A DNA stretch of 64,000 nucleotides from Calditrichota bacterium (GCA_020637445.1 JACJVZ010000003.1:210150-274149); one strand, 5' to 3'. Counted from the first letter of the stretch, positions 2,890 to 37,900 are shown. The notes: generated from the letters alone by a model not told the origin. A program made the numbers and translations.

Positions 2890-3675
2890 TTATTGTTCCG
2901 AACCGTTATTTTCAAGTTGCTCGACTTCAAAGCTGTCGACCTTTCCGGCGCCTTCAGCATCGACTGCGAGCAGTTCGCGGACGATTTTGACTTCGCCGGG
3001 TGGCCCAATTTGTTCTTTAACCAATCCCACGCCTTGAGCAAACCAACGGACCGTTTGCCAATTGGCAACACCGCGCTCTTCGCTGTAGGCTTGTTCGTCC
3101 ATTTCATTCCGTTGGTAGCGGGCTTCAATGGAATCGGCAACGGCGGGCAGCGGGGTCACAACTGTTTTCAGACAGTCTTCGAATTTTCCGGCAGGAACCG
3201 TGACGGTTTCAAATCCGGCGACAATCGTCTCCGTCCCGGTCTGCTCGTTGTACCACGCGCTGTCCAAAGCGGCGCCTTCGTCCACCCATATTTGGTTAAA
3301 CGCACTAACCTGCGTCCGGGATTCCATGGACGTGAAGGAAATGCGGGTCGCGGCTTCGACGATGACTCCGTTGGAGCTGAACTCGATACCGCCGTACGGC
3401 GTGCCTTCGTCTTCACAGACATAGACTTTCCACGCGCGGCCGCCGATATACTTCATTGTCAGCGAATAATCGTAAGATTCACCGTTACCCTTTTCGTGAT
3501 AGCGCAATTTGCGGCCGTCCATTAAGGGCATGAATTCCGTCCCTCCTCGGTAGAGAGTGCGGGTCGCGACGTCGCCGCAAGCGGAAAAAAGCAGCGCCGC
3601 GATAATCACGGCAAAGATAGCTGCGCCGTTTAGGTGCGCGGTCGAAATGCGGGGAATTGCCTTCAAACTGATCAA
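2890..3675 (-). CDS. Hypothetical lipoprotein
   Basis: 261 aa; signal peptide ending in lipobox-like LLFSAC; no recognisable catalytic motif. Confidence 0.6.
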   Translation of the reverse strand: MISLKAIPRISTAHLNGAAIFAVIIAALLFSACGDVATRTLYRGGTEFMPLMDGRKLRYHEKGNGESYDYSLTMKYIGGRAWKVYVCEDEGTPYGGIEFSSNGVIVEAATRISFTSMESRTQVSAFNQIWVDEGAALDSAWYNEQTGTETIVAGFETVTVPAGKFEDCLKTVVTPLPAVADSIEARYQRNEMDEQAYSEERGVANWQTVRWFAQGVGLVKEQIGPPGEVKIVRELLAVDAEGAGKVDSFEVEQLENNGSEQ

Positions 3676-3676
3676 A

Positions 3677-5656
3677 TTACTTCAACAAAACAAGTTTCTG
3701 AGTTTCGACGAATGATCCGGCGGAAACTCGCAGGAGATAGACTCCGGTTGCGAAAGCCGCTCTATCTACCAGCAAGCTATGCACACCGGCATCGAAAACA
3801 TCATCAGCCAACGTTGCCGCTTCGCGGCCTTCGATGGTATAGAGTTTCGCCGACACATGTGAAGTTTGGGGTAAATCGAAAGCAACGCGCGTGACGGCGT
3901 TGAAAGGATTGGGATAGGCCGGATACAACACGAAGGATTCGGCAAGATCTGGACGATCCGGCGAATCCAACGCCAAAATATAGACTCCGACTTCATCTGC
4001 TGTGTCGGGGCAGGCATTGTGGTGAATGATGACCTCGCCGAAAAATTCGGATTCAGGGTGTTCGGGGTTGGTCAAGACGGACACGACGATCTCGCCCGAA
4101 GCTCCCGCCGCAATTTCGCCGGACTCGGGCGCGACATAGAGCCATCCATACGTGGGAGTGTGTTCAACGGTCTCGCAGGTAAACTGCAGAAGTCCGTCGC
4201 CGTCGTTTTGAACAGTTAACGTGTCACGCTCCCACCGTCCAAAAGTACCGATGATGTTGACGCTGGTCTTGTTGTTCTCGTATTGAGGAGTCCCGACGGT
4301 GAAATCAACGACGTTCTCCCCTCCCAAGACCAACTCGACCGATTGCGAATCCGGGGCAATGCACGGTCCCGTAATCAGTAAGGTCGCCTCGCTTTGATTT
4401 GTACCAAGCAAGTATGCACCTTGTTCGTCGGTGATCGTGAAATCTCCGGTTTCAACGACTTCGACTCGCACGCCGGACAACGGCTCATTTGTGCCTTGCG
4501 CCCGAACGATTCCGTTGACGATATAGCCGGGACCAAAGCGGTATAAGCGCGCGGCGTAGTCCGTAGACTGGAACGTCGTTCCGAAGATCAGTCCAGCACT
4601 GCCGCGGTTGTGCATGCCGCGCAGATCCACTCCGTCTGCCGAAAGCTCCGCCGAATGGTCGCTGTTACCGGACGAGTTTAACGTATATATCCGGCCTGTG
4701 AACGGCCCGACTTCGCTCGCAGTTGACCCGCACACAGTTGCGCCGCCGTCATCCGTAGGTCGAATACCGGAGATGCCAAAGAACTCGCCGTCTAACCCCG
4801 TCAAAGTCCAAACATAATTTCCGCTTGAGGTGAGCTTGTAAGCCCACGGCCAATAGATTCCGAAATCAAAGCCCTCATTCCCCGCGACATAGATATTTTC
4901 GTCGTCATCGAGTGCGATGGCTTGCGGCATGATGCGCATGATATCCGGAGAAGGATAGTCATTCATCCAAACAGTGCTTCCCGTAGGCGTGGTTCGTGCC
5001 ACAAATGCATCAAAAGTGAACGCATCCGTGGTCAACCAACCTGCGACCGCCAAGTCGCCATTGGCGAACTCTTGAACACAAGCTCCTTGACTTCCCCCCT
5101 GTCCTGAAACACTTGCAGTCCAGAGCGTGTCGCCGTTAGAGTCGAATTTGATTAGCAGATCGGATTGGGACCCGCTGTTGTCATACATACCCGTATACAA
5201 AACGAGTCCGTTGTCACGGGTCGCACAAATTCCCGCTTTGTTTTCGGGATAGGCGATGTCCAAGTCAAAAGAGATCTCGCCTTGAACGGCTCCGACATCG
5301 TTGATTCGGAGTACCGAGAGAGACGGCAAAGAGTCATTGTCAGACGTAACAACTCCAACTAACGCGATCTGGCCGTCTTCAAATTGCTCCATGCCAAGTA
5401 GGGTGCAGTAGTCACCCTGAAATGACACGGTTCCGTTCCAAACTTGGCTTCCAGTGGCATTCAGCCGCCACAGATCGATGCCCGCATCAGCATTGTGGGC
5501 GCTGGCCACCATTGTATGCCCGTTTTGCAGAATGATTGCGGACTGAACCCATTGAAAAGAGCTCAGGTCAATTTGTTGAGACCAAAGGGTGTCGAGTTCG
5601 GCGCGAGCCGGTTGCATGACAAAGAACAGCAGGACGATGAATCCAAATGACTTCAT
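3677..5656 (-). CDS. Secreted beta-propeller-repeat protein with T9SS C-terminal sorting domain (paralog 1 of 3)
   Basis: Start taken at internal Met (MKSFGFIVLLFFVMQPARA) preceded by AAAGGAG; ORF-track model 3677..5737 begins upstream of the signal peptide. C-terminus YPAYPNPFNAV...GVYLLRVSAGSFVETQKLVLLK is a Por/T9SS CTD. Confidence 0.8.
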   Translation of the reverse strand: MKSFGFIVLLFFVMQPARAELDTLWSQQIDLSSFQWVQSAIILQNGHTMVASAHNADAGIDLWRLNATGSQVWNGTVSFQGDYCTLLGMEQFEDGQIALVGVVTSDNDSLPSLSVLRINDVGAVQGEISFDLDIAYPENKAGICATRDNGLVLYTGMYDNSGSQSDLLIKFDSNGDTLWTASVSGQGGSQGACVQEFANGDLAVAGWLTTDAFTFDAFVARTTPTGSTVWMNDYPSPDIMRIMPQAIALDDDENIYVAGNEGFDFGIYWPWAYKLTSSGNYVWTLTGLDGEFFGISGIRPTDDGGATVCGSTASEVGPFTGRIYTLNSSGNSDHSAELSADGVDLRGMHNRGSAGLIFGTTFQSTDYAARLYRFGPGYIVNGIVRAQGTNEPLSGVRVEVVETGDFTITDEQGAYLLGTNQSEATLLITGPCIAPDSQSVELVLGGENVVDFTVGTPQYENNKTSVNIIGTFGRWERDTLTVQNDGDGLLQFTCETVEHTPTYGWLYVAPESGEIAAGASGEIVVSVLTNPEHPESEFFGEVIIHHNACPDTADEVGVYILALDSPDRPDLAESFVLYPAYPNPFNAVTRVAFDLPQTSHVSAKLYTIEGREAATLADDVFDAGVHSLLVDRAAFATGVYLLRVSAGSFVETQKLVLLK

Positions 5657-5737
5657 AAGGGCTCCTTTCGGGATGCAGCGCAATGACGAAAGACATTTGG
5701 TCCGGGCGGGACCCACTCCCGGGCCGGAAAAGAACAA

Positions 5738-7726
5738 TTAGCGAATATACAGCAATTTCTGGACGGCGAAGGTATTCGGCATCGCGGCCCGAACGAAATA
5801 CAGTCCGGTCGCTTCTCCGGACAAATCAATGTTTATATTGTGATTGCCAGCAGACATGCGACCGTCGACAAGAGTTTTTACCCATTTCCCTGCAATGTTA
5901 TACACCTCCAAGCGGGCGACAGTTTCATTGGGAATCGAGAGTGTAATTGAGGTGTTGCTATTGAAGGGATTTGGATAGGCCGGCGACAGTGAGAACTGGG
6001 CCGGGAGCTCGGAGTGATCGTTGACATCGAGCACACTGACCAGAATGGGTAAAACCATCACGGTGTCTGGACAGGCGTTGCTTCGGATGGTCAGTTGCCC
6101 GTAGAACTCAAAGTTTCCATCGTTGGTGGTGTCAGCATGAGCAGTTATGACGGCGGAAGTGCTTGCATTGGGCGCCAAAACTCCGTGATCAGGCGCAACC
6201 GTGAGCCACGCTCCCGGAGGAGAAATTCCTTCGACGCTGAGAGTGTAGTTCAGGCTACCCGAACCGGAATTGGAAAAAGAAACGTTCGCGGTGCCGTCGG
6301 TCTCGTTTTGCGAAATGATATTGACGCTCGATTGGAGATTCGCAACGTTGGGTTCGCCGACTTCAAAATTTATTTGGACCGACTCGTTCTCGACCACTTG
6401 GACTCCGAAGACGGTATCCGCTTCGATACAGGCACCGTTGACAACAAGGTTATAGGTTCCGGCTTCAATATCAAATTGATAGACTCCATCTACGTCCGTG
6501 AGCGCGTAACGCAGTCCTCCCGAATCCGAGACGCGGGCACCGGGTACGGGATCTCCGGTTTCGGCGCTGCGTACGATTCCGTGAATTCCTGCGGGCGGCG
6601 CTAAAGACAAAATGTAGGCACTGACAGCGTTGTCGTCGGCAACGATTGCACCGACTGCAACAGCTCCGCCGCTGGAGTAGCGAACGATATTGTTGAATCC
6701 GCCTTCTGCGCCGAGATTTCCATAGCGCCACACCCAGCGCGTGAGGTTTTCGTCATCCACCGCGCGCATGAACGGGCCGGTGTCCGTTGCACCGGGTCCG
6801 GACTTTCCGACGAATAACATGCCACCGAACCACGGAGTCGCACCGACAAAACGATCGGCGAAACCTGTTGAGCTAAAGGCGAGCGAATAAGGCGCTCCAT
6901 CTGTAGGATGCACTCCGACAAATCCCGAAGTGCCGTTGACATCGCTTCTGCCTACGATCCAAAGAGTTCCGACCGGGTCGGCAATGACATTAAAGCACGT
7001 TTCGTAGTTGGACGTGCCATAGGTTCGACCCGTACCGATTTGATTTCCGTCCAAATCGAATTCAAGCTCCCAGACGTCCGTGGAGCCCGCGCCGTAACTT
7101 CTGGTTTGAGCGGCGACGACCAGATTACCATCGGGTTTTTGAATGATATCGTTGCCGATATCGGTGTCATTTCCGCCCACCGTACGCGTCCAAACGGTAT
7201 CGCCGTTGGCTTCACACAAGAGTACCCAGACATCTGAATGTGTGGGGTCCGTTGTGCCGCCTCGGTATCCCGTCACGGCGAAGCGGCCGTCGGTAAGTTT
7301 GCAGAGATTCCAGCTTTTGGTCCGGCCTTCGCGAGCATACCCTCTTTGCCACAGGACTTCGCCGGTGGACGCCAGGAATGAGACGAGGCTCACCTCTCTT
7401 CCGTCTTGAATATCCCATCCGGCGGCAACCATCGTGTCGCCGGACAGAGCGATCAGACCGTTGAGCGATTCATTGTCCGTGGAGGCCAAGACGGTTTGCG
7501 CGTAGACCGAATCACCGGACGTGGTGTAGGCACAGATGAGATAGTCATAGTCGGGATCGGTAAAACCGATTTGGGCATAGCCGACTCCGACGATCAGGGT
7601 ATCGTGCACCACGGCGGCGTCGTACAGATAGCATCGATCATTGACCAGAAAAGAGCGCGACCACGTAGTATCGGGCTGCGCAAAGGAAAGACACGGCAGG
7701 AGCAACAGGAGCAGCAGCGCAGGCAT
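5738..7726 (-). CDS. Secreted beta-propeller-repeat protein with T9SS C-terminal sorting domain (paralog 2 of 3)
   Basis: 662 aa; signal peptide MPALLLLLLLPCLSFA; carboxypeptidase-regulatory-like middle domain (GIVRSAETGDPVPGARV); CTD AYPNPFNSNTSI...GLYFVRAAM...KLLYIR. Confidence 0.8.
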   Translation of the reverse strand: MPALLLLLLLPCLSFAQPDTTWSRSFLVNDRCYLYDAAVVHDTLIVGVGYAQIGFTDPDYDYLICAYTTSGDSVYAQTVLASTDNESLNGLIALSGDTMVAAGWDIQDGREVSLVSFLASTGEVLWQRGYAREGRTKSWNLCKLTDGRFAVTGYRGGTTDPTHSDVWVLLCEANGDTVWTRTVGGNDTDIGNDIIQKPDGNLVVAAQTRSYGAGSTDVWELEFDLDGNQIGTGRTYGTSNYETCFNVIADPVGTLWIVGRSDVNGTSGFVGVHPTDGAPYSLAFSSTGFADRFVGATPWFGGMLFVGKSGPGATDTGPFMRAVDDENLTRWVWRYGNLGAEGGFNNIVRYSSGGAVAVGAIVADDNAVSAYILSLAPPAGIHGIVRSAETGDPVPGARVSDSGGLRYALTDVDGVYQFDIEAGTYNLVVNGACIEADTVFGVQVVENESVQINFEVGEPNVANLQSSVNIISQNETDGTANVSFSNSGSGSLNYTLSVEGISPPGAWLTVAPDHGVLAPNASTSAVITAHADTTNDGNFEFYGQLTIRSNACPDTVMVLPILVSVLDVNDHSELPAQFSLSPAYPNPFNSNTSITLSIPNETVARLEVYNIAGKWVKTLVDGRMSAGNHNINIDLSGEATGLYFVRAAMPNTFAVQKLLYIR

Positions 7727-7777
7727 CGTTAAACCTCAGTTGCTAAGTTGAACATAAAAAAGCGGCGGTAAGAACAA

Positions 7778-9772
7778 TCAGCGAATGTACAGCAGTCTTT
7801 GGGTTTGACTGCGGGAGTGATCGGACAAGCGAACAAAATACAATCCGGACGCCAGTCCCTTTGCCTCCCACGACAGGGAATGTTCTCCGGCGGGGAGTTT
7901 CGAATGACTCAGCAGCACGGCGACCTCGCGTCCCGTGACGTCATAGACCCGCAGTGAGACGTCGGACTCGTGATCGAGACCGAACCGCAAGCGTGTGACG
8001 TTGTTGAAGGGATTGGGATAGGCGGGATAGAGCGCAAATTCGGACGGCAAGGCGGGAGCGTCGTCGGCATCGAGTACGACGGCCAGCACATCAAAAGTCA
8101 AGACCGTATCGGGACACGAATTAGTGTGCAGCTTGAGTTCGCCGAAGAAATCGTAGTTTCCGCTGTCGTTGGTGTCGGCCTCGAGAATGACTTGAGCGAC
8201 AAGCGTGCTTCCCGGTGCCAGTCGTCCAAAGGGAGGTTCGACACGAAGCCAGTCATCAGGCGGAATTTCGGTCAGGGGTTCGAAGGAATAGACCAGATCG
8301 CCGCTGCCGGAATTTGAAAATCTCAGGTCGGCGGCGCCCTGTCCATGATTGGGGCCGACGACGTTGATCGAGGAGTAGCTGACGGCGAGATTGGGGACGC
8401 CGGCAGTGATATCGGCTTGAGTATTCTGGTTGGCGAAGACCTCAATACCGTGAACAGTGTCGCCGGCGAAACACGGTCCGCCCGAGAACATCGTGTAAAC
8501 TCCGGGCGGCAGAGCGAGGGCAAACCGTCCGACCGTATCTGAAACGGCATATTGCGGCAGTTCAGCGGCCTGCACGCGCACTCCGGCAACAGGTTCGTTG
8601 GTGACACGATTATGAACGACGCCAGAGATACCCGACGGCGGACTAATCCGCCACATCAGCATGTTATCATGTCCGGAGGTGTTGGCTCTTCCGCAGGCGA
8701 CAAAACCACCGTCGGAGATACGAACCAAATCTTCGAAAGCCCGGCCCAATTCCGTGTCTGTCCAGGTCCAACTTGTGTCCCCGTTGGTCGTCGTCGCCAC
8801 AAGCCACAACCTGCCGGAATTTACACTGGCGCCGGTTTGTCCGGCGAACAGGGTTCCGCCTTCAAGATAGGGAGCGACACCGGTAAATTTCTCGCTGCCA
8901 CGTCCGTCGGTATAGGTTCGTTGCCAAAGTGTTTCTCCCGCGGAATTGAGACGCATGGTGAAAGCATCGCGCAGAGAACCGGAACGGGATTCCCCCGTGA
9001 CAACGACGTCCCCGCTAACGGAATCCACGGTCGCCGCGAAAACCTGCTCGTAGTCTGAATCACCGTATGTCCGTTCACTGATAAAATTGCCGTCGCTGTC
9101 CGTAATCACGATATAGAAATCAAAGTGACGACTGGTGTCGGGATCGCTGGTCGTGCCGACGAGCAGGAGGTTTCCATTGGGCACACGTACGATCTCGTTG
9201 GGCCAATCAGGATTTGATGTGCCAAATGTCCTTGAATAGAGCGAATCGCCATTCGAGTCACAGCGCATCAGGTAGAAATCGAGCGATCCTCCGGGGCCGG
9301 TTCGTCTACCAGCTACATAAAACCCGCCGTCCTGATTGGGCAACAGCGCGGCCGCTTGGTCGGAGCCAGACCAGAAAAACTCCCTTGACCAGACGAAATC
9401 ACCTTGCTGTGAATAGCATACGACCAGTGAGTTTAGGCTTGAATCATGGCCGCACGCCACCAGATTGCCATTTGTAAGCACATCAACGTCAAATAGTTGC
9501 TGAACTGAATTGGGAACTCCGAAAATGCGGGACCAAAGAGTGTCACCAAGCGGATCGTAGCGCACGATGATTGCATCGTCAGAGTTGCCTGCGAACACAG
9601 AGCCAACCGCTACGAACCCGCCGGTGCTAAGCTCAATACAGGAATTTAGTGAAGAGGCGGATCCAAGATCGTAGATACTGGTCCATAGGGTGTCCACCTG
9701 CGCGGAGGCACGAGTCGTCAGACCTGACAAAAGAAGCAGCGCAAGGGCGAGAGTGAATGGCTTGAAACTCAT
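7778..9772 (-). CDS. Secreted beta-propeller-repeat protein with T9SS C-terminal sorting domain (paralog 3 of 3)
   Basis: 664 aa; signal peptide; same domain order as the two downstream paralogs; CTD AYPNPFNNVTRL...GLYFVRLSD...RLLYIR. Confidence 0.8.
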   Translation of the reverse strand: MSFKPFTLALALLLLSGLTTRASAQVDTLWTSIYDLGSASSLNSCIELSTGGFVAVGSVFAGNSDDAIIVRYDPLGDTLWSRIFGVPNSVQQLFDVDVLTNGNLVACGHDSSLNSLVVCYSQQGDFVWSREFFWSGSDQAAALLPNQDGGFYVAGRRTGPGGSLDFYLMRCDSNGDSLYSRTFGTSNPDWPNEIVRVPNGNLLLVGTTSDPDTSRHFDFYIVITDSDGNFISERTYGDSDYEQVFAATVDSVSGDVVVTGESRSGSLRDAFTMRLNSAGETLWQRTYTDGRGSEKFTGVAPYLEGGTLFAGQTGASVNSGRLWLVATTTNGDTSWTWTDTELGRAFEDLVRISDGGFVACGRANTSGHDNMLMWRISPPSGISGVVHNRVTNEPVAGVRVQAAELPQYAVSDTVGRFALALPPGVYTMFSGGPCFAGDTVHGIEVFANQNTQADITAGVPNLAVSYSSINVVGPNHGQGAADLRFSNSGSGDLVYSFEPLTEIPPDDWLRVEPPFGRLAPGSTLVAQVILEADTNDSGNYDFFGELKLHTNSCPDTVLTFDVLAVVLDADDAPALPSEFALYPAYPNPFNNVTRLRFGLDHESDVSLRVYDVTGREVAVLLSHSKLPAGEHSLSWEAKGLASGLYFVRLSDHSRSQTQRLLYIR

Positions 9773-10008
9773 GGAAACTAAAGATATAACAATTGGTTAG
9801 CTGTGCTCGAAGGCAGTTCTTGTAAACTATTAATATACCATAGTCTCATGGCCTCTTCAAGTTCCTCTTGGAAGATTGAGCAATTAAGTGGTGGTTACGG
9901 TGCCCAGCCGAGAATTGTGTTTGCCGGACCTCGCTGGCTCTTGAGAGTTGTTTTCTTTTAGTTTATATTTACGTTTTAGGAAAAAAGTCAGAGTTTCGGG
10001 AGTTGACC

Positions 10009-10980
10009 ATGTATCGCATCGCTCTTAGTTTGATGATCCTTCTTTTCCCAATGCTCACCGCATCGGGATACACGGTGTCCGGCAACATATCCGGTCGCGA
10101 AGGTGCGGCACTCACGTATGTTTATACGATTCCGACGAGTCTGGACACGTTCTACATCGCGATCGCGAATTTCCTGAATGGCAATTACTCACAGGGTAAT
10201 CTGGACGAGGGAAGTTACATCATATTCTCATTTCAGGATGCGAATTTCAGCTTTTTGCCCGATCCGGACGAATCGCGGGGATTTTACGGCGGAGAAGTAC
10301 CACAGACGTTGGACGTGTCGTCCGATTTGACAGGCATCGATATAGAACTGATGCCGCCGAACACAGGAGGATTTTCCGGTACGACGACGTACGAAGGCAG
10401 TGAAACGGGACCGACGTATGTTTTTGCACACCGGACGAACACGTTTGACGGCCTGCCAAGCGGAGCGGGAATTTTGCTCAACAATTCGGGAAGTGGAGAC
10501 TACACGGCGATAGTGGACAGCTTTGGAGTTTACTACGCGTTCGCGTTCATGGATGTGAATTCGAACTTTCAGTACGACGTGGGTGAACCCTACGACGTAT
10601 ACGGCGACGATCTTGAACCTGAGCCGATTACGATTACTCAGGGACAATCGTTTCCGGACAACATAAATTTCACTCTCGTAGCGACGTCTTCCGCAGCCGC
10701 GCCGACCGTGGCCGTTTCCGATTTCGAGCTTGGCCAAGCCTATCCCAATCCGTTCAATCCAGTCGCGACGATTCCTTTCACATTGGAAAGAACGTTGAGT
10801 GTTGAGATCGTGGCTTGCGACATCCTTGGACGAACGGTGCGAACACTGCACTCGGGGGTTTTACCCGCCGGCGAACACAGCGTTACCTTTGACGGCAACG
10901 GATTGGCGAGCGGACTCTACATTATCGAATTGCGCACACAAAACCACTCATCATGCACTCCCGCCGTGCTGTTGAAATAG
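10009..10980 (+). CDS. Secreted protein with T9SS C-terminal sorting domain
   Basis: Start at first ATG (MYRIALSLMILLFPMLTASG) with GGGAG upstream; the ORF-track start 10003 is TTG. CTD AYPNPFNPVATIPF...GLYIIEL. Confidence 0.7.
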   Translation: MYRIALSLMILLFPMLTASGYTVSGNISGREGAALTYVYTIPTSLDTFYIAIANFLNGNYSQGNLDEGSYIIFSFQDANFSFLPDPDESRGFYGGEVPQTLDVSSDLTGIDIELMPPNTGGFSGTTTYEGSETGPTYVFAHRTNTFDGLPSGAGILLNNSGSGDYTAIVDSFGVYYAFAFMDVNSNFQYDVGEPYDVYGDDLEPEPITITQGQSFPDNINFTLVATSSAAAPTVAVSDFELGQAYPNPFNPVATIPFTLERTLSVEIVACDILGRTVRTLHSGVLPAGEHSVTFDGNGLASGLYIIELRTQNHSSCTPAVLLK

Positions 10981-13900
10981 TTTGGCTCATAGGGCTCCTG
11001 ATTTTAGCCGCCGGACTGCGCGTTCCGACGGCACGCGGGGAAGCTCTCTTTGTTCGGGGAGAAGTCACGGGAATTTGGAGTGCGCCGATAGACACGGTGG
11101 TGATTGACAGCTTCGCGTGGGTTCCCGCTGCGGAGACATTGCAGATAGCGCCCGGAATGGTTGTGGCCTTTTCCGGGCGTTTTTCATTGTTGGTCAACGG
11201 AACTCTGTTAGCCAACGGCGAAGGCGATGATTCCATTTTCGTACAGAGCATTCCGTACCACGATTCCAACGGTCATCTTGGAATCAGGTTCTACGAAACC
11301 ACCACGATCTCGCGGCTGAACAAGGTCAAGTTCGAGGACGGGTTCGCGAACTCGGGTAACTTTGAACGCTACGGCGGAGCGCTTGAACTCTATTTCTCGG
11401 AAGTTGAAATAGACTCTTGTTTATTTCAAGGCAATCGCGCGCGCATCGACGGCGGAGCAATTTATTGCCGCGAAGCGGGGACGCTGACGGTGCGAGCCTC
11501 GGAGTTTGAAGGCGACAGCACACGGTTTGGCGGAGGCGGCGCAATTTTGGCGCGGACGAGCGGTTACGTGCGGCTGACGCGCTGTAGATTCACGAACAAC
11601 TCGGCGGCGGTAAGCGGCGGCGCGGTCACTTCGGAGAGCGGCGTCGTGGTTGAACTTGATAGCTGCTATTTTGCGAATAACTTTGCCGTCAACAAAGCCG
11701 GCGGGCTCTACCTCTGGTCGACTCCTCCGGCAAGCTGGATTCGCAATTGCGTGATTGAAGAGTGCGTGGCCGATCAGGGCGGCGGAATCTTTACGGACAA
11801 CTGCCGGGCGACGATCGACGGATGCACGATTCGGAATTGCTTTGCCCGCTTGGGCGGCGGATTAGGCGCGCGACGGTCGAATAATCTTACGACCCTTTCG
11901 CACACGACGATTACGGGAAACGCCGCCAATGAAGACGGCGGCGGACTCTACATTACGGAGGCCGCGCGCTGCACGGTCGAGAATTGTTTGATTGCGAACA
12001 ACACGGCCACACGCGGCGGGGGAATCTTCACAGTCGCGTCCACTTCGCCGACGATTCGCTTCACGACATTTGCAGGAAATATTGCGCAAGGCGGATCGGC
12101 TCTGGATTTCTACGGCGGCGGCGAAATTTACAATTCAATTGTCACAGGTGAAACCGGAGACGCTCTGGTCAATTACGGCGCCACCGCTTCACCGACGGTT
12201 TCCTATACGAACATCTTCTCAAACTCGGTGCCTGAGTTGTCGGGAGTTCATCCTGAGTGGCTGCTGGAAAACACGAGAATGAATGTCGCGCTGGTGGAAT
12301 GTGACTCGCTGAGAAACATCTCATTCGATCCACAATTTGTAAATTCCGACAGCGGTGATTTCAATCTTTCGGACATAAGTCCGTGCTTGTTCGGTGCAGA
12401 TACAAGCTATTCGAGCGGTGCTGATCTCGCTGGAAATCCACGGGTGTCTCCGCAGGGAAGTTGGCCGGATATGGGGGCATATGAGAACGATGCGCCGCTG
12501 CCGTATTTTCAGAATTGCGGACCGCAGCGCGGAGTTTGGTTTCCGGGCGAGTACGTTGTCGGCTGTTCTTTGAGAGTTGAAACCTCTGATACTCTTGTTC
12601 TGATGGGCGGCGCGACACTCTTGTTCGCTCCCGGAGCCGGACTATATGTTGAGGGAACGCTGCTGGCGATGGGCACCGCGCACGATTCGATCGTCTTTGA
12701 CCGCTATTTTGACTTGCCGGACGCGACGTGGAACGGGATTTCGCTGGCATCCTCGACCACAAATTCACGACTGAATTATTGTTCCGTGCGGCACGTCGTA
12801 GGAGCGTCGGCACTGACGACCAGCGAACCAGCCACACAACTCAACCATTGCACGTTTTCATTGAACGAGCACGTCGGCGGTGGCGGAGGAGCCGCAAGCG
12901 CGCTGCAAAACTCGTCACCTGTTTTTACAAGGTGCACATTTAAGCAGAACCGCGCAACCACGGGCGGAGCAGTTAGTGCCCTGACAGGACACATCGACTT
13001 TCGCGGATGCTTGTTTGACCACAACGAGGCGGTAAACTTCGGTGCTCCATTCACTGCACTTGGCGGCGCGGTGAAATGCGAAAACGGGAGCTTCTCGGAG
13101 TGCTTGTTTGTTTCCAACACGGCCTACGAGGGCGGCGGCGTCGCATTGGATCATACGGGGATTTTTACAGACTGCGAATTCGACTCATGCGCGGCATGGA
13201 AAGGCGGCGGCCTGTCGCTCGGCGGGGGAACGGCGGAGCTTTACCGGGTTGAGTTTCGCGGCAATCAAGGAAAGGATTTCGGCGGAGCTGTGTGCATGGG
13301 CGAGGCGGTACTTTCGGACAGCGGCAGCTTTTACATAGGCAATCGCGGTGCAAACGGCGGAGCGATCGCGAATCTTCATGGCGGGTACTCGGGAACAGAC
13401 ACTGAGTATAGTGACAACTCGGCCGACAATGAAGGGGGAGTGATTTGGCTGGGAAATGACCGAGCGGCATTGTTTTTTACGTGCACACTCCACCGCAACC
13501 ACGCGAAGACCGGTGGAGCAGTTTGGGGAGACGCGGCAGGCATCGACTTTTTCCGCTGCTTATTGGACAGCAATTATGCGACGGAAGCGACGGGCGGAAT
13601 TTACTTGCTCGGCGGAGGCGTGTCCTTCTTGCGTTCGACGGTCGTAAATCACCATTCGCCCGGGCAAGGCACGGTCGTGCAAAACCGTTTCAATTCGGTG
13701 TTGTGGTGCAACTCGACTCTGTTTGCCGAAAACGGCGACAGCCCCATTTCCGTTCACAGCGGAGTGCAGAACGACTTCCGGTATTCGATGAGTGACGTGC
13801 TCATCGTAGCCGGCGACGATTCGATCGGATTTCCGAGCAGGGTGAATTTTAACGGCGATTCGTGCGACGCGGATTTGAATCTTGTGGCTGAACCGTTGTT

Positions 13901-14624
13901 TGTCGATTATGCGGCTCGCGACTACCGGTTGCAGAGCGAATCCAAAGCGGTGCAGGCGGCAGATTCGCTGCTTCCGCTCGACGACGACGGAACGCGCGCG
14001 GATATTGGGCTCTATCCGGGTATTCGTCCGTACCTGCTTTTGCAGCCTTTCAATCTTGCGTGGCCTGAACGGAACGCATACTTTCATCCGGGCGATACGG
14101 TGGCGTTTGCATGGAATTCATCGTGGGACGGCGATCCGGGAGACGAAATAGACTATTCACTACATTTGCACAGCGAGTCGTTTGACACGGCTATTACAAC
14201 GGGCAGCGAACTTGGCCATACGGTAATACTGCATAACGGGCAATATGAATGGTGGGTCGTGGCCGCGTCGCATCAACCGGAAACGGAACTGGAAAGTTTT
14301 GAGCGCCGGACGTTTGTCGTCACCGATCCTGACCTTGGCCTTGATGATGTTTTGTGGCCCCGGGAGTTTTCAGTTTCGATGGACGGACCGAATCCGTTTA
14401 ACAGCGCAACGCGACTGCGGATTACTCTTCCCCACTCCACTGAAGTGACGGTAACATTGGTTAACGTTTTGGGCAGAACGTCATTCGCGATTCGTGAACG
14501 TGAATTTGTAGCTGGGGTCCATAGCATTTCAATTGATGGGACTCGGCTCGGTTCGGGTGTGTATTGGGCGCATGTTAAAACGAGTTTAGGAACGAAAACT
14601 CTTCAATTACACTTGATCAAATAG
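10953..14624 (+). CDS. Pmp-like parallel beta-helix repeat protein with T9SS C-terminal sorting domain
   Basis: 1223 aa; signal peptide; ~18 GGA[IVL]/GGG[IVL] and F-x-x-N motifs (DGGAIYC, FQGN, FTNN, FANN...) as in polymorphic-outer-membrane-protein repeats; CTD NPFNSATRL...GVYWAHVK. Start overlaps upstream gene by 28 nt, so start is uncertain. Confidence 0.8.
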   Translation: MHSRRAVEIVWLIGLLILAAGLRVPTARGEALFVRGEVTGIWSAPIDTVVIDSFAWVPAAETLQIAPGMVVAFSGRFSLLVNGTLLANGEGDDSIFVQSIPYHDSNGHLGIRFYETTTISRLNKVKFEDGFANSGNFERYGGALELYFSEVEIDSCLFQGNRARIDGGAIYCREAGTLTVRASEFEGDSTRFGGGGAILARTSGYVRLTRCRFTNNSAAVSGGAVTSESGVVVELDSCYFANNFAVNKAGGLYLWSTPPASWIRNCVIEECVADQGGGIFTDNCRATIDGCTIRNCFARLGGGLGARRSNNLTTLSHTTITGNAANEDGGGLYITEAARCTVENCLIANNTATRGGGIFTVASTSPTIRFTTFAGNIAQGGSALDFYGGGEIYNSIVTGETGDALVNYGATASPTVSYTNIFSNSVPELSGVHPEWLLENTRMNVALVECDSLRNISFDPQFVNSDSGDFNLSDISPCLFGADTSYSSGADLAGNPRVSPQGSWPDMGAYENDAPLPYFQNCGPQRGVWFPGEYVVGCSLRVETSDTLVLMGGATLLFAPGAGLYVEGTLLAMGTAHDSIVFDRYFDLPDATWNGISLASSTTNSRLNYCSVRHVVGASALTTSEPATQLNHCTFSLNEHVGGGGGAASALQNSSPVFTRCTFKQNRATTGGAVSALTGHIDFRGCLFDHNEAVNFGAPFTALGGAVKCENGSFSECLFVSNTAYEGGGVALDHTGIFTDCEFDSCAAWKGGGLSLGGGTAELYRVEFRGNQGKDFGGAVCMGEAVLSDSGSFYIGNRGANGGAIANLHGGYSGTDTEYSDNSADNEGGVIWLGNDRAALFFTCTLHRNHAKTGGAVWGDAAGIDFFRCLLDSNYATEATGGIYLLGGGVSFLRSTVVNHHSPGQGTVVQNRFNSVLWCNSTLFAENGDSPISVHSGVQNDFRYSMSDVLIVAGDDSIGFPSRVNFNGDSCDADLNLVAEPLFVDYAARDYRLQSESKAVQAADSLLPLDDDGTRADIGLYPGIRPYLLLQPFNLAWPERNAYFHPGDTVAFAWNSSWDGDPGDEIDYSLHLHSESFDTAITTGSELGHTVILHNGQYEWWVVAASHQPETELESFERRTFVVTDPDLGLDDVLWPREFSVSMDGPNPFNSATRLRITLPHSTEVTVTLVNVLGRTSFAIREREFVAGVHSISIDGTRLGSGVYWAHVKTSLGTKTLQLHLIK

Positions 14625-14877: not shown

Positions 14878-17800
14878 ATGAGAGCAAGGATTTTGCTGTT
14901 GAGCCTTGCGGCACTGATGATGATCGGAGAGCGGGGAGTGCTCGCTGATTCAGCACAAGTATCTGAAGTCCGTGGCCAAAGATTGCGGACGGAACTGCAA
15001 AAGACGAACGATTCGGCAAAACAGAGAGCGATCAGAAAAGAGATTTCGCAGCGTGCGCAGACTCGGGAGCGGAGAGACTCGCGCGAACGGTTGGATCAGG
15101 GAGGAGAAACATGCTCTTTGCCGACGGACTTGACAGGAATGCCGATTCCGATTGTCGTGTCCGGAACCACCATCGACTTCGCGGACGACTACAATTGTGC
15201 AGGATTCGGTCCCGCGCCTCCGCCCTGCTGGACAGGCTACTACGATCAGCTGACTTCGTGTTCCGGGCCGGACGTGGTCTACAGGTTTACACCGCCGGCA
15301 GACGGGGATTACCGTTTTTCGTTGTGCAATTCGGATTACGACACGGGAATCCTGATCTTTAACGATAACTGTCCGCCGAATTTTCCGACGGACTTCGTCT
15401 GCGGAAACGACGACTATTGCAATGTTCAGACTGAGATCGTATCGCTTTCTCTGACCTCCTCGCAACCGATATTGGTTATTATCGACGGCTGGAATGGTGA
15501 TGCGGGAAACTACGAGTTGGTGATTGATTTTGCGGAGCCGCCGCCGCCCAACGACGATTGTTTCGGTGCACAGTTCATCGAGGCGCCGTCTTTGGTGTCA
15601 GGATCGACGGCCAATGCAACGTATGACGATGCGCCGTTCGTCTGCGGAGGGTCGGTCATCGACGGTCCGGGAGTTTGGTATACGACTCTGGGAACTGGAA
15701 ATACGATGACCGTGAATACGTGCTTGCTGGACGGCTATGACACTCAGATCGCCGTTTACCAAGGAGGTTGTACGGGTTTGACGTGTGTTGACGGCAATGA
15801 TCAATTCTGCCTGAATCAGAGTCAAGTGACGTGGTGCAGTCAAGCGGGAGAGCAGTATTTCATTCTCGTGCACGGTTATCAGGGACAGGCCGGAGATTTT
15901 GTGTTGGAACTCACGGACGACGGCATCCCGTGCGGAGGAACGACGCCTGTACTATCCATCCTTGAAGTTTACGAGAACTTGCCGGACTTGGTAGGTCAAC
16001 AGGTGACCATCCGGGGCTTTGGTTCCGGCCCGAATCAGGGGATTATCACGGAAACTGAAGGTGATTGGCTGCGCAACACGGAGCTTGAGCCGTATTCGGC
16101 GCTCAAAGTAGTCGGACTTGATCCTTGGAATATTTACATTCCTGAGTTGATGTGGGGGCAGTACATCGAAGTGCAAGGTATCATTGGCGCGATTCCGATC
16201 TCGCCGGACGTGCCGCCGGGATATGAGGCCACGATTGAAGTCAACGCGCCTGCGGTCGTGGTCCCGAGCACGCCGCATGTGCCGGTAACTCAGGGAAATT
16301 GGCGGCCAGCCAATTGGACTCCAGACACGACGAATTGTGATACGTGCAATTTCGGGATGTTCATCTCGGGCGGAATCGACAGTGCAAACAACCGGGACGA
16401 CTACTGGGATGATTTGGTTGATTTCTACTGTTACAAAACCGGCGCCGGGTATTGTCCGCAGAATATCAACATCTACTATTTCAAAGGCGACACGCTGGAC
16501 GGTAGAATACCTCCTGCGCGAGTGGACTCTTGCACACAGGCAAAGATTCAGGCCAGAATCAATGCGATTGCCAGCAAGGTCAAGGCTTGCAAAGATGCTG
16601 GCAAAACACCCAAGGTTGAGATTGTCGTGACGAATCACGGAAAACATCCTCCCAACGGTGGAATCAATATTCTGGGCCGCGACGGGGCCGGCAGTTCAAA
16701 CGCGATATCGCCGCATGATTTCACATCCATGATCCAGACTTTGTGCGATTCTGGAGCTGCAAATATCGAGATTGAGTTAGGCGAGTGCTTCAGCGGACAG
16801 ATGGTCAATCATCTTCGCGACAGTTTGGACACTAAAGGCGCAAATGTCACGGCAGCTTCGGCGGCGCCGGATTCACTTTCGAGTTGGAGCAAAGGCAAGA
16901 AGGGCGGCTGGAACCGTTGGCTGAATCCGTTGGTTTGCGCGAGATACTCGGGAGAAAGCCTTCCCGAAGCGATTCGTAGAGCGAATCAAAGCTACGACTC
17001 TTCTCTTGTGCAGCTTGATTCGTTGTTCCGGGCATGGGCAGCTTATCTCGATTCACTTGGTACACACGGAGACTCGGTGAAGGCCGCCAAGTACCGCCGG
17101 TGGGCCAGCGACGCCATCAACGGCAAGGGCGGAGAAACCGTTTGGTTCAGCAGAACGTTCAAAGAATCGTGCAACGGAGACACGATATCGGTTTCGCCGG
17201 GCGGCAGACTTGAATTCACGTATTCCGGTCCGAACTCGAGCTGCGGCAACAGCGAGATTATTTGCAAAAACACGGCCGGCCATTGGATCAATTACCGCCA
17301 TTGGAATTGGAACGTACCGGGCTCCGCGGGTTACCACACTGGCAACAATGTCCGCACGTTGGATGCCGGTGCGGGACACACAGGACTCTACGTCATTCAC
17401 AGTTTGAGTGATTCATTCAGGGTTTCTATCAAATCCATCAATCCACCGCTTCCTCCAAGTCTTTTGACCTCTGCTTCGAATCCTGAAGACTATGCGGGCT
17501 TCGGTGTGGGCTGGACATCGGGAAATTCGGATGAATTCGGGGCAATCAATACGGCCACACTGACACTCCCGGACGTGGACGACGACGGATTTGATCTGTC
17601 GACGGCTCCGAAACTGCTCGGCCCGGGCGGAGTGGGACAATTGTTCGCGGACTTTGACGTGTTGGCGGAGAACTATTGGTGGACGGACATGCGGGTTTAT
17701 ATGCGCGTGCTCGGAGGAACGGCCGGTGTGACGGTGACAGCGGACTGTCCCGATTGCGAATTCTCCAATGTTTCGTACGATCTCGCGGGCGGAGACGAGA

Positions 17801-18144
17801 AATTTTATTTGAACCTCGGTTCGATCAACGTGGTGGGTTCACATACGTTGTCGCTCACGGCGACCGGAACAACGGAATTGGATTGTTGGGGACTTGAATC
17901 GGCACACTCGACGGGAACACCGCTGCCTGTGACGGATCTTGTGATCATTCGTGACGGCGACAACATCAACCTTCACTGGAGCGCGGTGCCGCTTGCCGTC
18001 AGTTATTTGGTACAGAGAGCTGCATCCGAGAATGGGCCGTGGGCAACCATTGGATTGGCTTTCGGAACGACTTTCGTGCATACGGGACAAGCGGCGTCCT
18101 CAGACGAGCAGCTTTACTACCAAGTGATCGCGGTTAGTCCGTAG
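14878..18144 (+). CDS. Large secreted multidomain protein: two PPC-like jelly-roll domains, clan-CD (legumain/gingipain-like) cysteine peptidase candidate, C-terminal Fn3-like domain
   Basis: Start at ATG (MRARILLLSLAALMMIG) with AAAGGGG upstream; putative His-Cys dyad in strand-associated motifs IVVTNHGKHP and IEIELGECFSGQM; no T9SS CTD. Confidence 0.75.
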   Translation: MRARILLLSLAALMMIGERGVLADSAQVSEVRGQRLRTELQKTNDSAKQRAIRKEISQRAQTRERRDSRERLDQGGETCSLPTDLTGMPIPIVVSGTTIDFADDYNCAGFGPAPPPCWTGYYDQLTSCSGPDVVYRFTPPADGDYRFSLCNSDYDTGILIFNDNCPPNFPTDFVCGNDDYCNVQTEIVSLSLTSSQPILVIIDGWNGDAGNYELVIDFAEPPPPNDDCFGAQFIEAPSLVSGSTANATYDDAPFVCGGSVIDGPGVWYTTLGTGNTMTVNTCLLDGYDTQIAVYQGGCTGLTCVDGNDQFCLNQSQVTWCSQAGEQYFILVHGYQGQAGDFVLELTDDGIPCGGTTPVLSILEVYENLPDLVGQQVTIRGFGSGPNQGIITETEGDWLRNTELEPYSALKVVGLDPWNIYIPELMWGQYIEVQGIIGAIPISPDVPPGYEATIEVNAPAVVVPSTPHVPVTQGNWRPANWTPDTTNCDTCNFGMFISGGIDSANNRDDYWDDLVDFYCYKTGAGYCPQNINIYYFKGDTLDGRIPPARVDSCTQAKIQARINAIASKVKACKDAGKTPKVEIVVTNHGKHPPNGGINILGRDGAGSSNAISPHDFTSMIQTLCDSGAANIEIELGECFSGQMVNHLRDSLDTKGANVTAASAAPDSLSSWSKGKKGGWNRWLNPLVCARYSGESLPEAIRRANQSYDSSLVQLDSLFRAWAAYLDSLGTHGDSVKAAKYRRWASDAINGKGGETVWFSRTFKESCNGDTISVSPGGRLEFTYSGPNSSCGNSEIICKNTAGHWINYRHWNWNVPGSAGYHTGNNVRTLDAGAGHTGLYVIHSLSDSFRVSIKSINPPLPPSLLTSASNPEDYAGFGVGWTSGNSDEFGAINTATLTLPDVDDDGFDLSTAPKLLGPGGVGQLFADFDVLAENYWWTDMRVYMRVLGGTAGVTVTADCPDCEFSNVSYDLAGGDEKFYLNLGSINVVGSHTLSLTATGTTELDCWGLESAHSTGTPLPVTDLVIIRDGDNINLHWSAVPLAVSYLVQRAASENGPWATIGLAFGTTFVHTGQAASSDEQLYYQVIAVSP

Positions 18145-34606: not shown

Positions 34607-34933
34607 ATGTAATATCTTCGAGTATCAGAGTCAATCACATTTTCGAATTTTTAATATTTTGATATTTAATAGTTTGTGGCAATAGTCTTGTAAGCCCGCG
34701 AGTCTTTAGGCTTTCGGGTACACCTCTTTGTTTGTGATCCAAAGGGATCGTGCTGCAGTATCTACAGATTATTTTCGCATTCCTAATAAGAGGCAACGAG
34801 AGCGTGTGTGGAAACCGTGGATAAGAAAATGACTTATTGCAGTTTCAATCGTTGAATTGAATCGATAGAAATCTTGACCAAATGCGTTTTGGAGGCTATC
34901 TTATTATCCTATAACTTTGTGAAAGGCTCAAGT

Positions 34934-37900
34934 ATGGCTGCTTTGACTCGGTTTGACTGCCTTTCTTATTGCTCCAAAATTGGAGCGATTGGATCTATTT
35001 TCATTATTGTTTTGATGCTTGGTGTCTTGCCATCCCTTGCATTTGGTGCAGACGGCCAGCAATCCGAGCAGCTTTCACCTTTGCATGAGGACTATGTTCC
35101 TCCCTCCCCCGCCGAGGACGTGCGCATAGAAATAATCGGCGATGCGCGGACGTTCGCCGTCAACAATCCCTTCAGTCGTGATTTCTTACGCAGATCGGGG
35201 TTGATGGCAAAAGGAAGCACGTGCGGTCAAGGCAACAACTGCGCACTGCGCCCGAGTGAAGATGTCGTGTTGTCCGTGTTTATTCCGACCAGTAGAAACT
35301 GGTCGTTTTCGCTCTGCGGCTCGTCGTTTGACACGTACATGGCAATCGGCACGACTCCTTGTTCCGCCAATTTGGGATTCAACGATGATTTTTGCGGCCG
35401 GCAGTCCCAGTCAGAGTGTATCTATCTGGACGTCGGCGTAGTCTATGTGACCATTGAGTCGGGATCCGGCGGATGCGGCACATACAAATTGATAGTCGAT
35501 ACGTGTTCGGCGGGCCGCTGCTGCTACATGGATTCAAATAACGAGCCGGCATGCACAAACTCGGGATATACCGAGTGTGCCGCAGTAAGCGGCGAATGGG
35601 ATGCGTCGACGAGGTGCGAAACGGATCCTTGTCCCTTGGGCCGTTGCTGCTACGAGATCGACGGAGTGCCGAATTGCATGGACGGGCTGTTGGAAAAAGA
35701 GTGTTTGTTCAACCTTCAAGGCACATGGACGGAAGGCGTCACGTGCAGCCAGGAGATATGTCCTGAGATGGTGGACACCCTTACTTGCGGTCCGCTGGAC
35801 TTGGTGCTGGCCATTGATGTTTCGGGTTCAATGATAGAGGAACTTTCTACTGTTCAATCGGAAGCCCAAGAAATTTTGACTCGTGCTGTTGAAGTGTCCC
35901 GCGAAGATCTGCGAGTAGGTCTGGTAACTTTTCGCGAATTCGTCAGCGTACCTTCATCCCTGACGAACGATATCGGATCTGTGTCTTCCGCCATTGGCCA
36001 GCTTTTCGCTTATTGGGGCGGCGATCCCGGAGAAGCGTCTGACGAAGCCCTGCGCGAGATTATCACGATGGACGGTTCTTGCACACATGGTCCGGGATTC
36101 GACACGCCTTTCAGAGCGGGCGCGGACAAAGTGATCATCATCATGACGGACGAGATCAATAGCGGGTGCTCGGGAATATTCAGGCCGCAGTATGCTCATC
36201 AACGCGCATTGGACGCTCAAGCCGCGGATATCAGGATTTCCTCTATCTATATTCGAGGAGAATTGAACGAACGGAATATATCCGATGTATTGCGAGACTA
36301 CGCCGAGACGACGGGCGGCCTCTATGTGGTATCGCGCGCAGGAGAAAACATCTCTGAAAATATCGAGTACATTTTGGATCGCTGCGGTCGGTCGACGCTT
36401 GCTTTGGCCGGTGATTCGATACCCAATGTGCCGTGCGTAAACTCCACCGACTTTCCAAACCAAGTAGAGTTGAAGATCAGAGTAAGGAATGTAACAAACG
36501 AACCGATCGGTGGAGGCACGGTTCATTTGTTTTCTGACGCAGGTCCCGGAGGAACAGGTCTTGTAATCTCTCCAAATCCCGTGTCACTGGGGTACGTACT
36601 TCCTCACGACACCGTCGAAGTAGGATTCACGGTAGTCCTCGCGGCCAATCCTTCCGGGGGATGCATCAATTTTCGCGCTGTACTGACTCAAGACACTATT
36701 GAACTCGGAACGGATTCGATATGCATAAACGTTCCAAATGGGGGACTTGAATTTGGGAATCACTGGTTTCCCGCGGTACACTGCGACGGATACGGGGTTG
36801 CACCCACCAGTTTCACGGCCACGTTTGATGTGGTCAACAACTCGCTTTGCGAAGTGGATGACGCCCAAGTATCATTGGAAATTTTGAGCGGAAGCGGCGG
36901 TCAAGGCACGGTAGTTTCAGCAAATCCCGTGCAGTTGGGACACGTTCCTTACGGCCGGACCGTTACCGTACCATTTGACGTACAGATTCAACCGTTGCCT
37001 CCGGGAGGGTGTATCTACTTTCGAGCCATGCTGCACTTCGGTGATGAACCATACCAAGTGCAAGAGTCGTGTTTGAATATCCCTTCCTATGAGCTTACGC
37101 TGCTGGCAATTTCTGACTATGCCGTCAGCTGTGTAGATGGCGAAATAGTGCCTTTGTCTATGAATTTGGTTGTCGCGGCACGGAACTCATCCTCATGTCC
37201 TGCACACGGAGTACAGATATGGATGGGACCCGGCAATGGGTCCGCAGGTACCGGAACGGTCGTGACGCAGAATCCGGTTGTGATCGGCACCATGAATCTC
37301 CTCTCCACACGAGGTGCGAACTTTGGTGTTGAAATCAATCCGAATTCCACAGGCGGAATCATTTCTTTCCCCGTGAAATTGATTGTGGGTACAGACACGG
37401 TTGCCACGAGCAATGCAAACATCATTGTTCCACCTTGCGGCTGCGAGTCGACAACTGCCGTTGTGATGTCATCCAAGAGCGAGAGCTTGGGATGCACTTG
37501 TGTGCAAATGTGTGATACCGCACCAATTCCCATCACAATCTGCGGGGACGGCTACGAAACGCCAAGCCCGCCAGTTATCAGTTTTCAAGACTGTTTCGGT
37601 GACTGCGTGCAGGGCGAAGCTGCGGTTCCGGAATCACTGTGGATACACGAGAATGATTGCTGGACAAACTTCATCCATGTGGTCGTGACCGGATGCACCC
37701 AAGTATGCGCAGAGTTCCCCAGACATCTCGCCGCGGCGGATTTCAAGTTGATACGAGACTTCGACCGGATTTATGTTCGCTGGAACATGGTCTCAGAGAA
37801 GAACTTGAAACTGCTCGAAGTAGAACGCAACGGCCAAATGGTTGCTGTTGTCGACGCGACGAACGAAGTCGGTTCCGAGTACGAGTGGACGGACAGCAAC

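Follow-up and report, generated by a model that had tools for sequence, protein, structure and literature searches.

Three tandem propeller proteins with type IX sorting domains, an old and stably kept trio in Calditrichota

Type A cargo proteins of type IX secretion systems (T9SS; TIGR04183/PF18962, with the gingipains of Porphyromonas gingivalis as an example) share a C-terminal sorting domain (CTD) of the pattern PxYPNPF...GxY...K/R, a signal peptide and one or several immunoglobulin (Ig)-like domains preceding the CTD. The closest known cargo of this type belongs to Bacteroidota, the T9SS itself being described (PMC9170169, PMC12398890) as a feature of the Fibrobacteres-Chlorobi-Bacteroidetes (FCB) superphylum. 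Calditrichota are uncultured or poorly studied, their repertoire of T9SS cargo is undescribed in the literature searched, and the same search gave no match for a T9SS in Calditrichota or Caldithrix. Here, we consider three consecutive genes, designated A, B and C, in a stretch of 64,000 nucleotides from a Calditrichota bacterium (GCA_020637445.1, JACJVZ010000003.1:210150-274149; the window below), the products of which carry such a CTD behind a propeller mounted on a two-domain stalk. This passenger part has its own described relatives. One of them is CylK, a cyanobacterial Friedel-Crafts alkylating enzyme. In its structure (PDB 7ron, 7fh6) the seven-bladed propeller is C-terminal, and the active site lies between the propeller and an N-terminal calcium-binding beta-roll which supplies Arg105 (PMC8916777); A, B and C are devoid of this beta-roll, of Arg105 and of the inter-domain cleft, whereas the T9SS CTD and the stalk present in all three are lacking in CylK. 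The ectodomain of integrin alpha, in which Ig-like domains (thigh and calf) come after a seven-bladed propeller, shares its gross layout with A, B and C, but the latter have neither FG-GAP repeats nor a beta-subunit nor a transmembrane segment, and their stalk domains belong to other families. Finally, the blades weakly match, below cut-off, all four of the repeat families SBBP (PF06739), DUF5122 (PF17164), delta-60 (TIGR02608) and NF047494 (Leptospira LipL53-type lipoprotein); most SBBP/delta-60-type relatives are composed of propeller and CTD only, with a length of ~470-550 amino acids, and are devoid of the cysteine-bearing stalk.

Compared with these systems, the trio is ordinary T9SS surface cargo with propeller passengers, distinguished from the known bacteroidotal cargo by its host and by the propeller on a two-domain stalk. 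We assign a probability of roughly 60% to the whole statement that A, B and C represent an anciently duplicated, T9SS-exported and surface-displayed family of ~660 amino acids with three binding specificities. The architecture, the paralogy and the age of the duplication, taken together, are close to certain, and the family occurs in Calditrichota and in related uncultured lineages. The features on which this rests are as follows.

3677-5656, minus strand: gene A, 659 amino acids, the most diverged paralogue (TIGR04183; BLASTP against C)
5738-7726, minus strand: gene B, 662 amino acids, same architecture as A and C, sister of C in a neighbour-joining tree
7778-9772, minus strand: gene C, 664 amino acids (open reading frame, Pfam, NCBIfam, AlphaFold2 model)
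9701-9772, minus strand: predicted signal peptide of C, residues 1-24, ending in TRASA and followed by QVDTLW (read from the sequence)
8642-9700, minus strand: propeller head of C, residues 25-377, seven blades in the model
8399-8632, minus strand: CarboxypepD_reg (transthyretin-like) domain of C, residues 381-458 (PF13620, model)
8072-8389, minus strand: BACON_2/ASH-like Ig-type sandwich of C, residues 462-567 (PF19190, model)
8105-8122, minus strand: N-S-C-P-D-T loop of C (motif scan), with the codon of Cys553 at 8114-8116
6062-6079, minus strand: N-A-C-P-D-T loop of B (motif scan)
4001-4018, minus strand: N-A-C-P-D-T loop of A (motif scan)
7781-8020, minus strand: T9SS type A CTD of C, residues 585-664, starting PAYPNPFN (TIGR04183, PF18962)

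A previous description of this DNA, made by inspection of the letters (the sequence-only reading), had proposed three consecutive same-strand open reading frames (ORFs) for proteins of ~660 residues with the same order of domains. Their coordinates were reproduced exactly, all three on the minus strand, and public gene calls contain identical products of the expected size (659, 662 and 664 amino acids), protein C being identical to P0001, [quoted passage not shown]. The window corresponds to contig JAGQRY010000015.1 of the metagenome-assembled genome GCA_020439805.1. A TTG at 5737 would lengthen the ORF of A upstream; preference is given to the ATG at 5656, because it is preceded by an AGGAG Shine-Dalgarno site, opens a canonical signal peptide, corresponds to the starts MKSFG or MKAFG of the orthologues and agrees with the public calls. 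In BLASTP comparisons B and C share 33% identity over 656 columns (E 1e-102), A and C 28% over 663 columns (E 1e-65), and A and B 26% over 561 columns (E 3e-44). Since homology extends over the full length in all three pairs, similarity limited to the generic CTD, which would leave merely neighbouring T9SS substrates, is excluded, and A, B and C are true paralogues that arose by tandem duplication. Between them the N-terminal 375 residues are 16-27% identical versus 32-40% for the C-terminal part; the strong divergence ascribed to the N-terminal regions is thereby confirmed, yet these regions are still alignable and homologous.

The shared domain order is documented by Pfam and NCBIfam matches together with the AlphaFold2 model of C. 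In the database searches CarboxypepD_reg spans residues ~380-456, the BACON_2/ASH-like Ig domain ~462-567 and the type A sorting domain ~581-660. The latter exceeds the TIGR04183 cut-off of 23 bits in all three proteins (A 34.3, B 39.1, C 42.1), as had been expected for a Por/T9SS CTD in a search with hidden Markov models (HMMs); against PF18962 (cut-off 27 bits) B and C score 39.6 and 40.4 and A falls below with 23.0, the match ending in each case 2-4 residues short of the stop codon. PF13620 is likewise above its cut-off in B (38.6 bits) and C (40.4 bits), with A 0.8 bit under it, and PF19190 passes in B (35.0 bits), scoring 18.7 bits in C along with weak matches to ASH, HYDIN and Cep192. 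The model, built from 35 sequences (mean predicted local distance difference test score, pLDDT, of 90; predicted template modelling score of 0.67), shows 28 strands over residues 28-376 arranged as seven four-stranded blades, then two sandwiches (381-458 and 462-567), a flexible linker of low confidence (568-590) and the CTD sandwich (592-662). The motif found in the outer strand of each blade recurs in the N-terminal strand DTLWT, which so closes blade 7. The CTD part of the model contains six long strands within 592-662, with short bridges before them and a pLDDT of at least 90; the T9SS CTD fold has been described as a compact Ig-like beta-sandwich of 3+4 strands (PMC11285876), and profile searches matched the solved CTDs 8glj_D (E 1e-7), 8glk_D and 8qb1_A. 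As for the N-[AS]-C-P-D-T motif, it is present in all three proteins, but it does not end its domain as had been suggested: in C it occupies residues 551-556, a loop between strands 541-550 and 557-567, the last strand of the second sandwich. At the N-terminus a hydrophobic core and an AxA site predict a Sec signal peptide for A, B and C. In the model of C it forms a hydrophobic helix (residues 5-20), the AxA site is conserved in orthologues, and the equivalent cleavage points, again read from the sequence, fall between ARA and ELDT in A and between SFA and QPDT in B.

The gene order C-B-A with 1:1 orthologues was found in at least six further Calditrichota assemblies of metagenome-assembled genomes (L007, L008/L009, L012, L013, L014). 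The neighbours in common are, on one side, a divergent 323-residue CTD protein, a beta-helix CTD protein, a protein of ~1090 residues and an aldehyde dehydrogenase and, across from these, a lipoprotein of small size, a tetratricopeptide repeat (TPR)-thioredoxin, a protein of DNA-alkylation repair and an ankyrin protein. With their positional orthologues the proteins share 49-64% identity for C, 44-64% for B and 40-58% for A, compared with 23-33% to the other paralogues, and in the neighbour-joining tree the three paralogue groups are monophyletic, B and C being sisters. Gene conversion is not seen, because the CTDs are not homogenised between paralogues. Three copies are present in seven assemblies and two, C and B, in one lineage (L010/L011). 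The spacer between B and the lipoprotein gene of this lineage (L010:14054-14264, also L011:14135-14263) holds a relic of A, a 42-codon ORF MKSFGFMILSFVCVTVALATGVYILRMTAGASVATQKLVLLK, in which the signal peptide of A runs on in frame into the final 26 residues of its CTD; it shows 73% identity (tblastn E 9e-10), corresponds to an internal deletion of ~1.85 kb and retains upstream the spacer element described below and the ribosome-binding site. Gene A is therefore ancestral and was lost there by internal deletion. Judged by these sequence comparisons, the trio predates the split of all compared lineages and has been kept since.

Such constancy may also be taken to mean that the three proteins work as one body. 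A fixed hetero-oligomer of A, B and C at the surface, forming either a lattice like a coat or S-layer or a receptor of three parts, would fit the strict order and the 1:1 orthology as well as the short spacers, 51 nt between C and B and 81 nt between B and A, which suggest co-transcription; in addition, the stalk region of C weakly matches a model of the S-layer protein SlaB (E 0.008, far below cut-off). The lineage devoid of A keeps B and C intact, however, and the family member P0109 (L096) is a singleton in its genome, so that we regard obligatory assembly of the three as improbable.

Two observations on the compared loci should be mentioned at this point. In L013:7103-10847 (JADJCU010000005.1) the orthologue of C is split into two ORFs and that of B lacks the first ~110 residues; these breaks are probably indel errors of long reads rather than pseudogenes. 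The contigs L012 and L016/L096, with clear Calditrichota-type loci, are recorded under the title "uncultured Alphaproteobacteria bacterium"; L012 is the one that holds a syntenic C-B-A trio, and the bins are probably mislabelled.

The family is best outlined by its stalk. Residues 376-575 of C, searched against 1.84 billion representatives (clusters at 50% identity), gave 281, 96 and 19 matches when E was limited to 1e-3, 1e-10 and 1e-30, respectively. The strong matches are nearly all 640-700 amino acids long with the stalk at ~375-580, and the names of the members are all "hypothetical" or "T9SS ... domain-containing"; the ~96 representatives matching at E<=1e-10, together with two invariant cysteines, now delimit the family. 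Among 64 aligned representatives the CTD was found in 63 and CarboxypepD_reg in 58, an FG-GAP propeller taking the place of the SBBP-type head in 14. The stalk is a cassette carrying either of two unrelated types of propeller, SBBP-type or FG-GAP; in A, B and C neither FG-GAP/DxDxDG motifs nor matches to PF01839 or PF13517 were found. An instance of the second type is the 656-residue protein encoded at L025:7306-9276, in which a seven-repeat FG-GAP/DxDxDG head precedes a CarboxypepD_reg and BACON-like stalk with NSCPDT and a CTD; it is located elsewhere in the genome that carries the L014 trio. The cysteines, Cys434 and Cys553 in the numbering of C, are both present in all 61 representatives of ~660 residues, whereas three larger and distant proteins have neither. 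Cys434 (codon 8471-8473) belongs to a beta-hairpin of the CarboxypepD_reg domain and, according to strand parity in the model, would lie at the end of the first sandwich that faces domain 2, with Cys553 at the end of the second sandwich that faces domain 1. They probably form an interdomain disulfide stiffening the stalk; otherwise, the two cysteines and the neighbouring conserved acidic residues might compose a small metal site. The predicted cleavage sites of the same 61 proteins resemble the "Q-rule" of Bacteroidetes, with Gln or Glu following the site in most members: Gln is the next residue in at least 44, including B and C (codons 7676-7678 and 9698-9700), and Glu in the A group (9 of 61). 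According to the report of this rule (PMC5837995), it does not hold generally in the FCB group.

Among solved structures, CylK is by far the nearest to the head, being ranked at the top by the sequence profile and by two structure methods; the profile matched it through the propeller repeats with E 4.5e-43, and Foldseek with E 6e-19. Next in the Foldseek ranking come ectodomains of integrin alpha, then a sialidase and the propeller lectins of Photorhabdus (PHL/PLL), the integrin alpha chains standing among the best structural matches over the longest alignments. Many head relatives in the databases combine SBBP/DUF5122/delta-60-type Pfam domains with a CTD. In the mature proteins nothing precedes the propeller (which begins at residue 25 in C), and this leaves no place for the beta-roll domain of CylK, and in the phmmer alignment Asp440 of CylK is opposed to Trp190 and Tyr473 to Phe, the blade register of a repeat protein being ambiguous. 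A CylK-type enzyme was rejected, since the N-terminal domain is missing and the catalytic residues are not kept in the alignment; the head is a relative of CylK in scaffold, not in function. The resemblance to integrin alpha is likewise treated as analogy rather than membership. Binding of Ca2+ at the blade junctions is plausible from the shared Asp-rich motifs.

In the proposed mode of action A, B and C would pass the inner membrane by Sec export and fold in the periplasm, where the invariant cysteines at the interface of the stalk domains would stiffen the stalk as a disulfide or a metal site. The T9SS would then recognise the CTD and export the protein, the CTD being removed and the protein attached to the cell surface; the presence of seven CTD proteins in the window, the trio included, implies by inference that a working T9SS exists. 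As mapped on the model, within-group conservation among the loop classes of the head is highest in the A-B "DGG" and C-D "xGD" scaffold loops (0.55-0.74), and the D-A and B-C loops (0.40-0.64) are the least conserved part, even among orthologues. Strand C of blade 7 is the last of the propeller, and the chain exits from it on the side of the scaffold loops, so that the variable D-A/B-C face is expected to point away from the stalk and hence to be distal from the cell. The heads, old, individually conserved and mutually diverged, would then serve as non-redundant binding modules of adhesin, lectin or receptor type, and to this putative binding function, suggested by analogy, we give an even chance. 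A further step, rather unlikely in our estimation, would be to see in stalk and CTD a dedicated display scaffold of Calditrichota-like bacteria which holds interchangeable propellers at a fixed distance from the surface in the manner of integrin alpha, the trio then being a set of three receptors or a hetero-complex for different ligands, components of flocs or exopolymers for instance. The stalk family offers a tractable model for T9SS display of binding modules in FCB bacteria other than Bacteroidota. Neat as the stalk cassette, the swappable propellers and the relic of A may be, they would hardly surprise a specialist, and current understanding is not overturned.

Several points weigh against the assignment of the heads as T9SS-displayed binding modules. 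None of the components SprA/Sov, PorV, PorU and PorK-N is encoded within the 64-kb window. No propeller repeat exceeds a curated cut-off of Pfam or NCBIfam in A, B or C (15.0 bits versus 20.5 for SBBP, 15.3 versus 27 for DUF5122, 30.9 versus 76.5 for TIGR02608 and 32.7 versus 400 for NF047494, PQQ_2 being also sub-threshold), and the beta-propeller-like repeats of the sequence-only reading, which stay below cut-off in the HMM search, are borne out as a fold in the model of C. The disulfide and the assignment of top and bottom faces were deduced from the secondary-structure string of the model. The nearest characterised relatives of the head, CylK and virginiamycin B lyase, are enzymes, and binding is argued from the lack of conserved catalytic residues combined with analogy, that is, from absence of evidence. 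Finally, the orthologues used for head conservation (8 of A, 7 of B and 14 of C) form a thin sample, from which a small conserved site may escape.

With enzymes as the nearest characterised relatives of the head, A, B and C may also be considered as secreted or surface enzymes of lyase, lactonase or alkyl-transferase type, in which case the paralogues would be isozymes with different substrates. Apart from the missing beta-roll with its Arg105 and the substitutions at Asp440 and Tyr473, which are subject to the uncertain register, this is contradicted by the D-A/B-C face, where no position reaches 80% conservation in all of the groups, be it as a common residue or as one specific to a group, and the ORFs scanned in the window include no CylC-type halogenase, resorcinol pathway or other biosynthetic gene. 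The propeller as a whole was inspected for a conserved patch, catalytic or peculiar to one paralogue, and none emerged at the 80% threshold. We consider an enzymatic role of the heads unlikely and retain binding as the preferred assignment.

Three other public assemblies match the whole 8.1-kb region at 100% identity, and two more deviate from it by one mismatch or one 1-bp indel. Because the locus is essentially invariant in these five assemblies, strain-level comparison of the proportions of nonsynonymous (pN) and synonymous (pS) differences is uninformative. In the Logan assembly of SRR17907852 (L002:10639-12617) gene A is split into calls of 207 and 429 amino acids by a single 1-bp indel, the sole difference over 8.1 kb, which may reflect either an error of assembly or a genuine frameshift variant. 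At larger distances, synonymous sites are saturated, with pS of 0.70-0.81 and the synonymous rate dS undefined or above 2 for the paralogues and closest orthologues, so that dN/dS is not estimable, and pN versus pS and the relative nonsynonymous rate (dN) are the usable measures. For the closest orthologues pN is 0.22-0.27 and pS 0.70-0.76; pN being far below pS, the trio is under overall purifying selection. Comparison of the window with L007 gave the following dN values.

Gene A: head 0.46, stalk 0.22
Gene C: head 0.36, stalk 0.17
Gene B: head 0.30, stalk 0.33

In A and C the rate of the head is thus roughly double that of the stalk, and in B the head is no faster. The sequence-only reading had taken the cluster for a diversifying surface family expanded by tandem duplication; tandem paralogy and the nature of T9SS type A cargo stand, and active diversification or expansion does not. 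Such a process, of contingency or antigenic-variation type, could be read from the low identity of heads relative to stalks between the paralogues, from the doubled dN of the heads of A and C and from the weak conservation of the loops inferred to be distal, but it is largely refuted, and in our view highly improbable, given a copy number that is stable and reduced in one lineage by loss, 1:1 orthology with no concerted evolution, near-complete identity of the locus in the five assemblies, pN far below pS and a head of B that evolves no faster than its stalk. The annotation of the locus is corrected accordingly, from a fast-diversifying array to a stable and ancient trio of T9SS surface proteins.

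The surroundings of the trio in the window include four further CTD genes and two other genes of note.

2890-3666, minus strand: putative lipoprotein of 258 amino acids (LLFSAC lipobox), no sequence match in Pfam, NCBIfam or PDB
10009-10980, plus strand: CTD protein of 323 amino acids without any other domain
10953-14624, plus strand: beta-helix/PMP-repeat CTD protein of 1223 amino acids, the start of which overlaps the preceding gene by 28 nt
14878-18144, plus strand: protein of 1088 amino acids, without a CTD or any match in Pfam or NCBIfam
34874-38275, plus strand: VWA-domain CTD protein of 1133 amino acids
51598-54384, plus strand: 5'-nucleotidase-C CTD protein of 928 amino acids

The 1088-residue protein is kept beside the cluster in all syntenic genomes with a length of 1075-1101 residues. 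The AlphaFold2 model of the 258-residue lipoprotein (pLDDT 91.7) resembles the open barrel of LolA/LolB/RseB/YmcC, with 4fvs and 3fzx as best matches, a fold that is uninformative on the trio. Its constant neighbour across relatives is not the trio but the gene of a TPR-ResA/TlpA-like thioredoxin (1372-2847). The lipoprotein was considered as a dedicated partner of the trio and rejected, as in distant relatives it adjoins the TPR-thioredoxin without an upstream propeller gene. The remainder of the window is ordinary chromosome, with genes such as those for RecQ, BipA, SAICAR synthetase, Lgt, CorA and ABC transporters.

Two non-coding segments accompany the trio.

9773-10008: divergent intergenic region between C and the gene of the 323-residue CTD protein, with sigma-70-like sites at 9860-9832 (minus strand) and 9941-9969 (plus strand), from a consensus scan only
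5657-5737, minus strand: spacer between B and A with a block of ~50 nt, CCGG.CCGGGA..GGGTCCCGCCCGGACCAAATG..CTTCTTCATTGCACTGCA, from the alignment of six lineages

Scans for sigma-70 sites and terminators gave counts not above shuffled expectation, and a search of the B-A spacer in Rfam gave no meaningful match. Conservation is lacking in the C-B spacer. The block in the B-A spacer, a single copy in the window, is nearly identical in the six lineages despite saturation of synonymous sites; it contains a hairpin GGTCC-N5-GGACC with a possible alternative pairing CGGGA...TCCCG and, as judged from its letters, is a candidate for a processing site, an attenuator or a protein-binding site.

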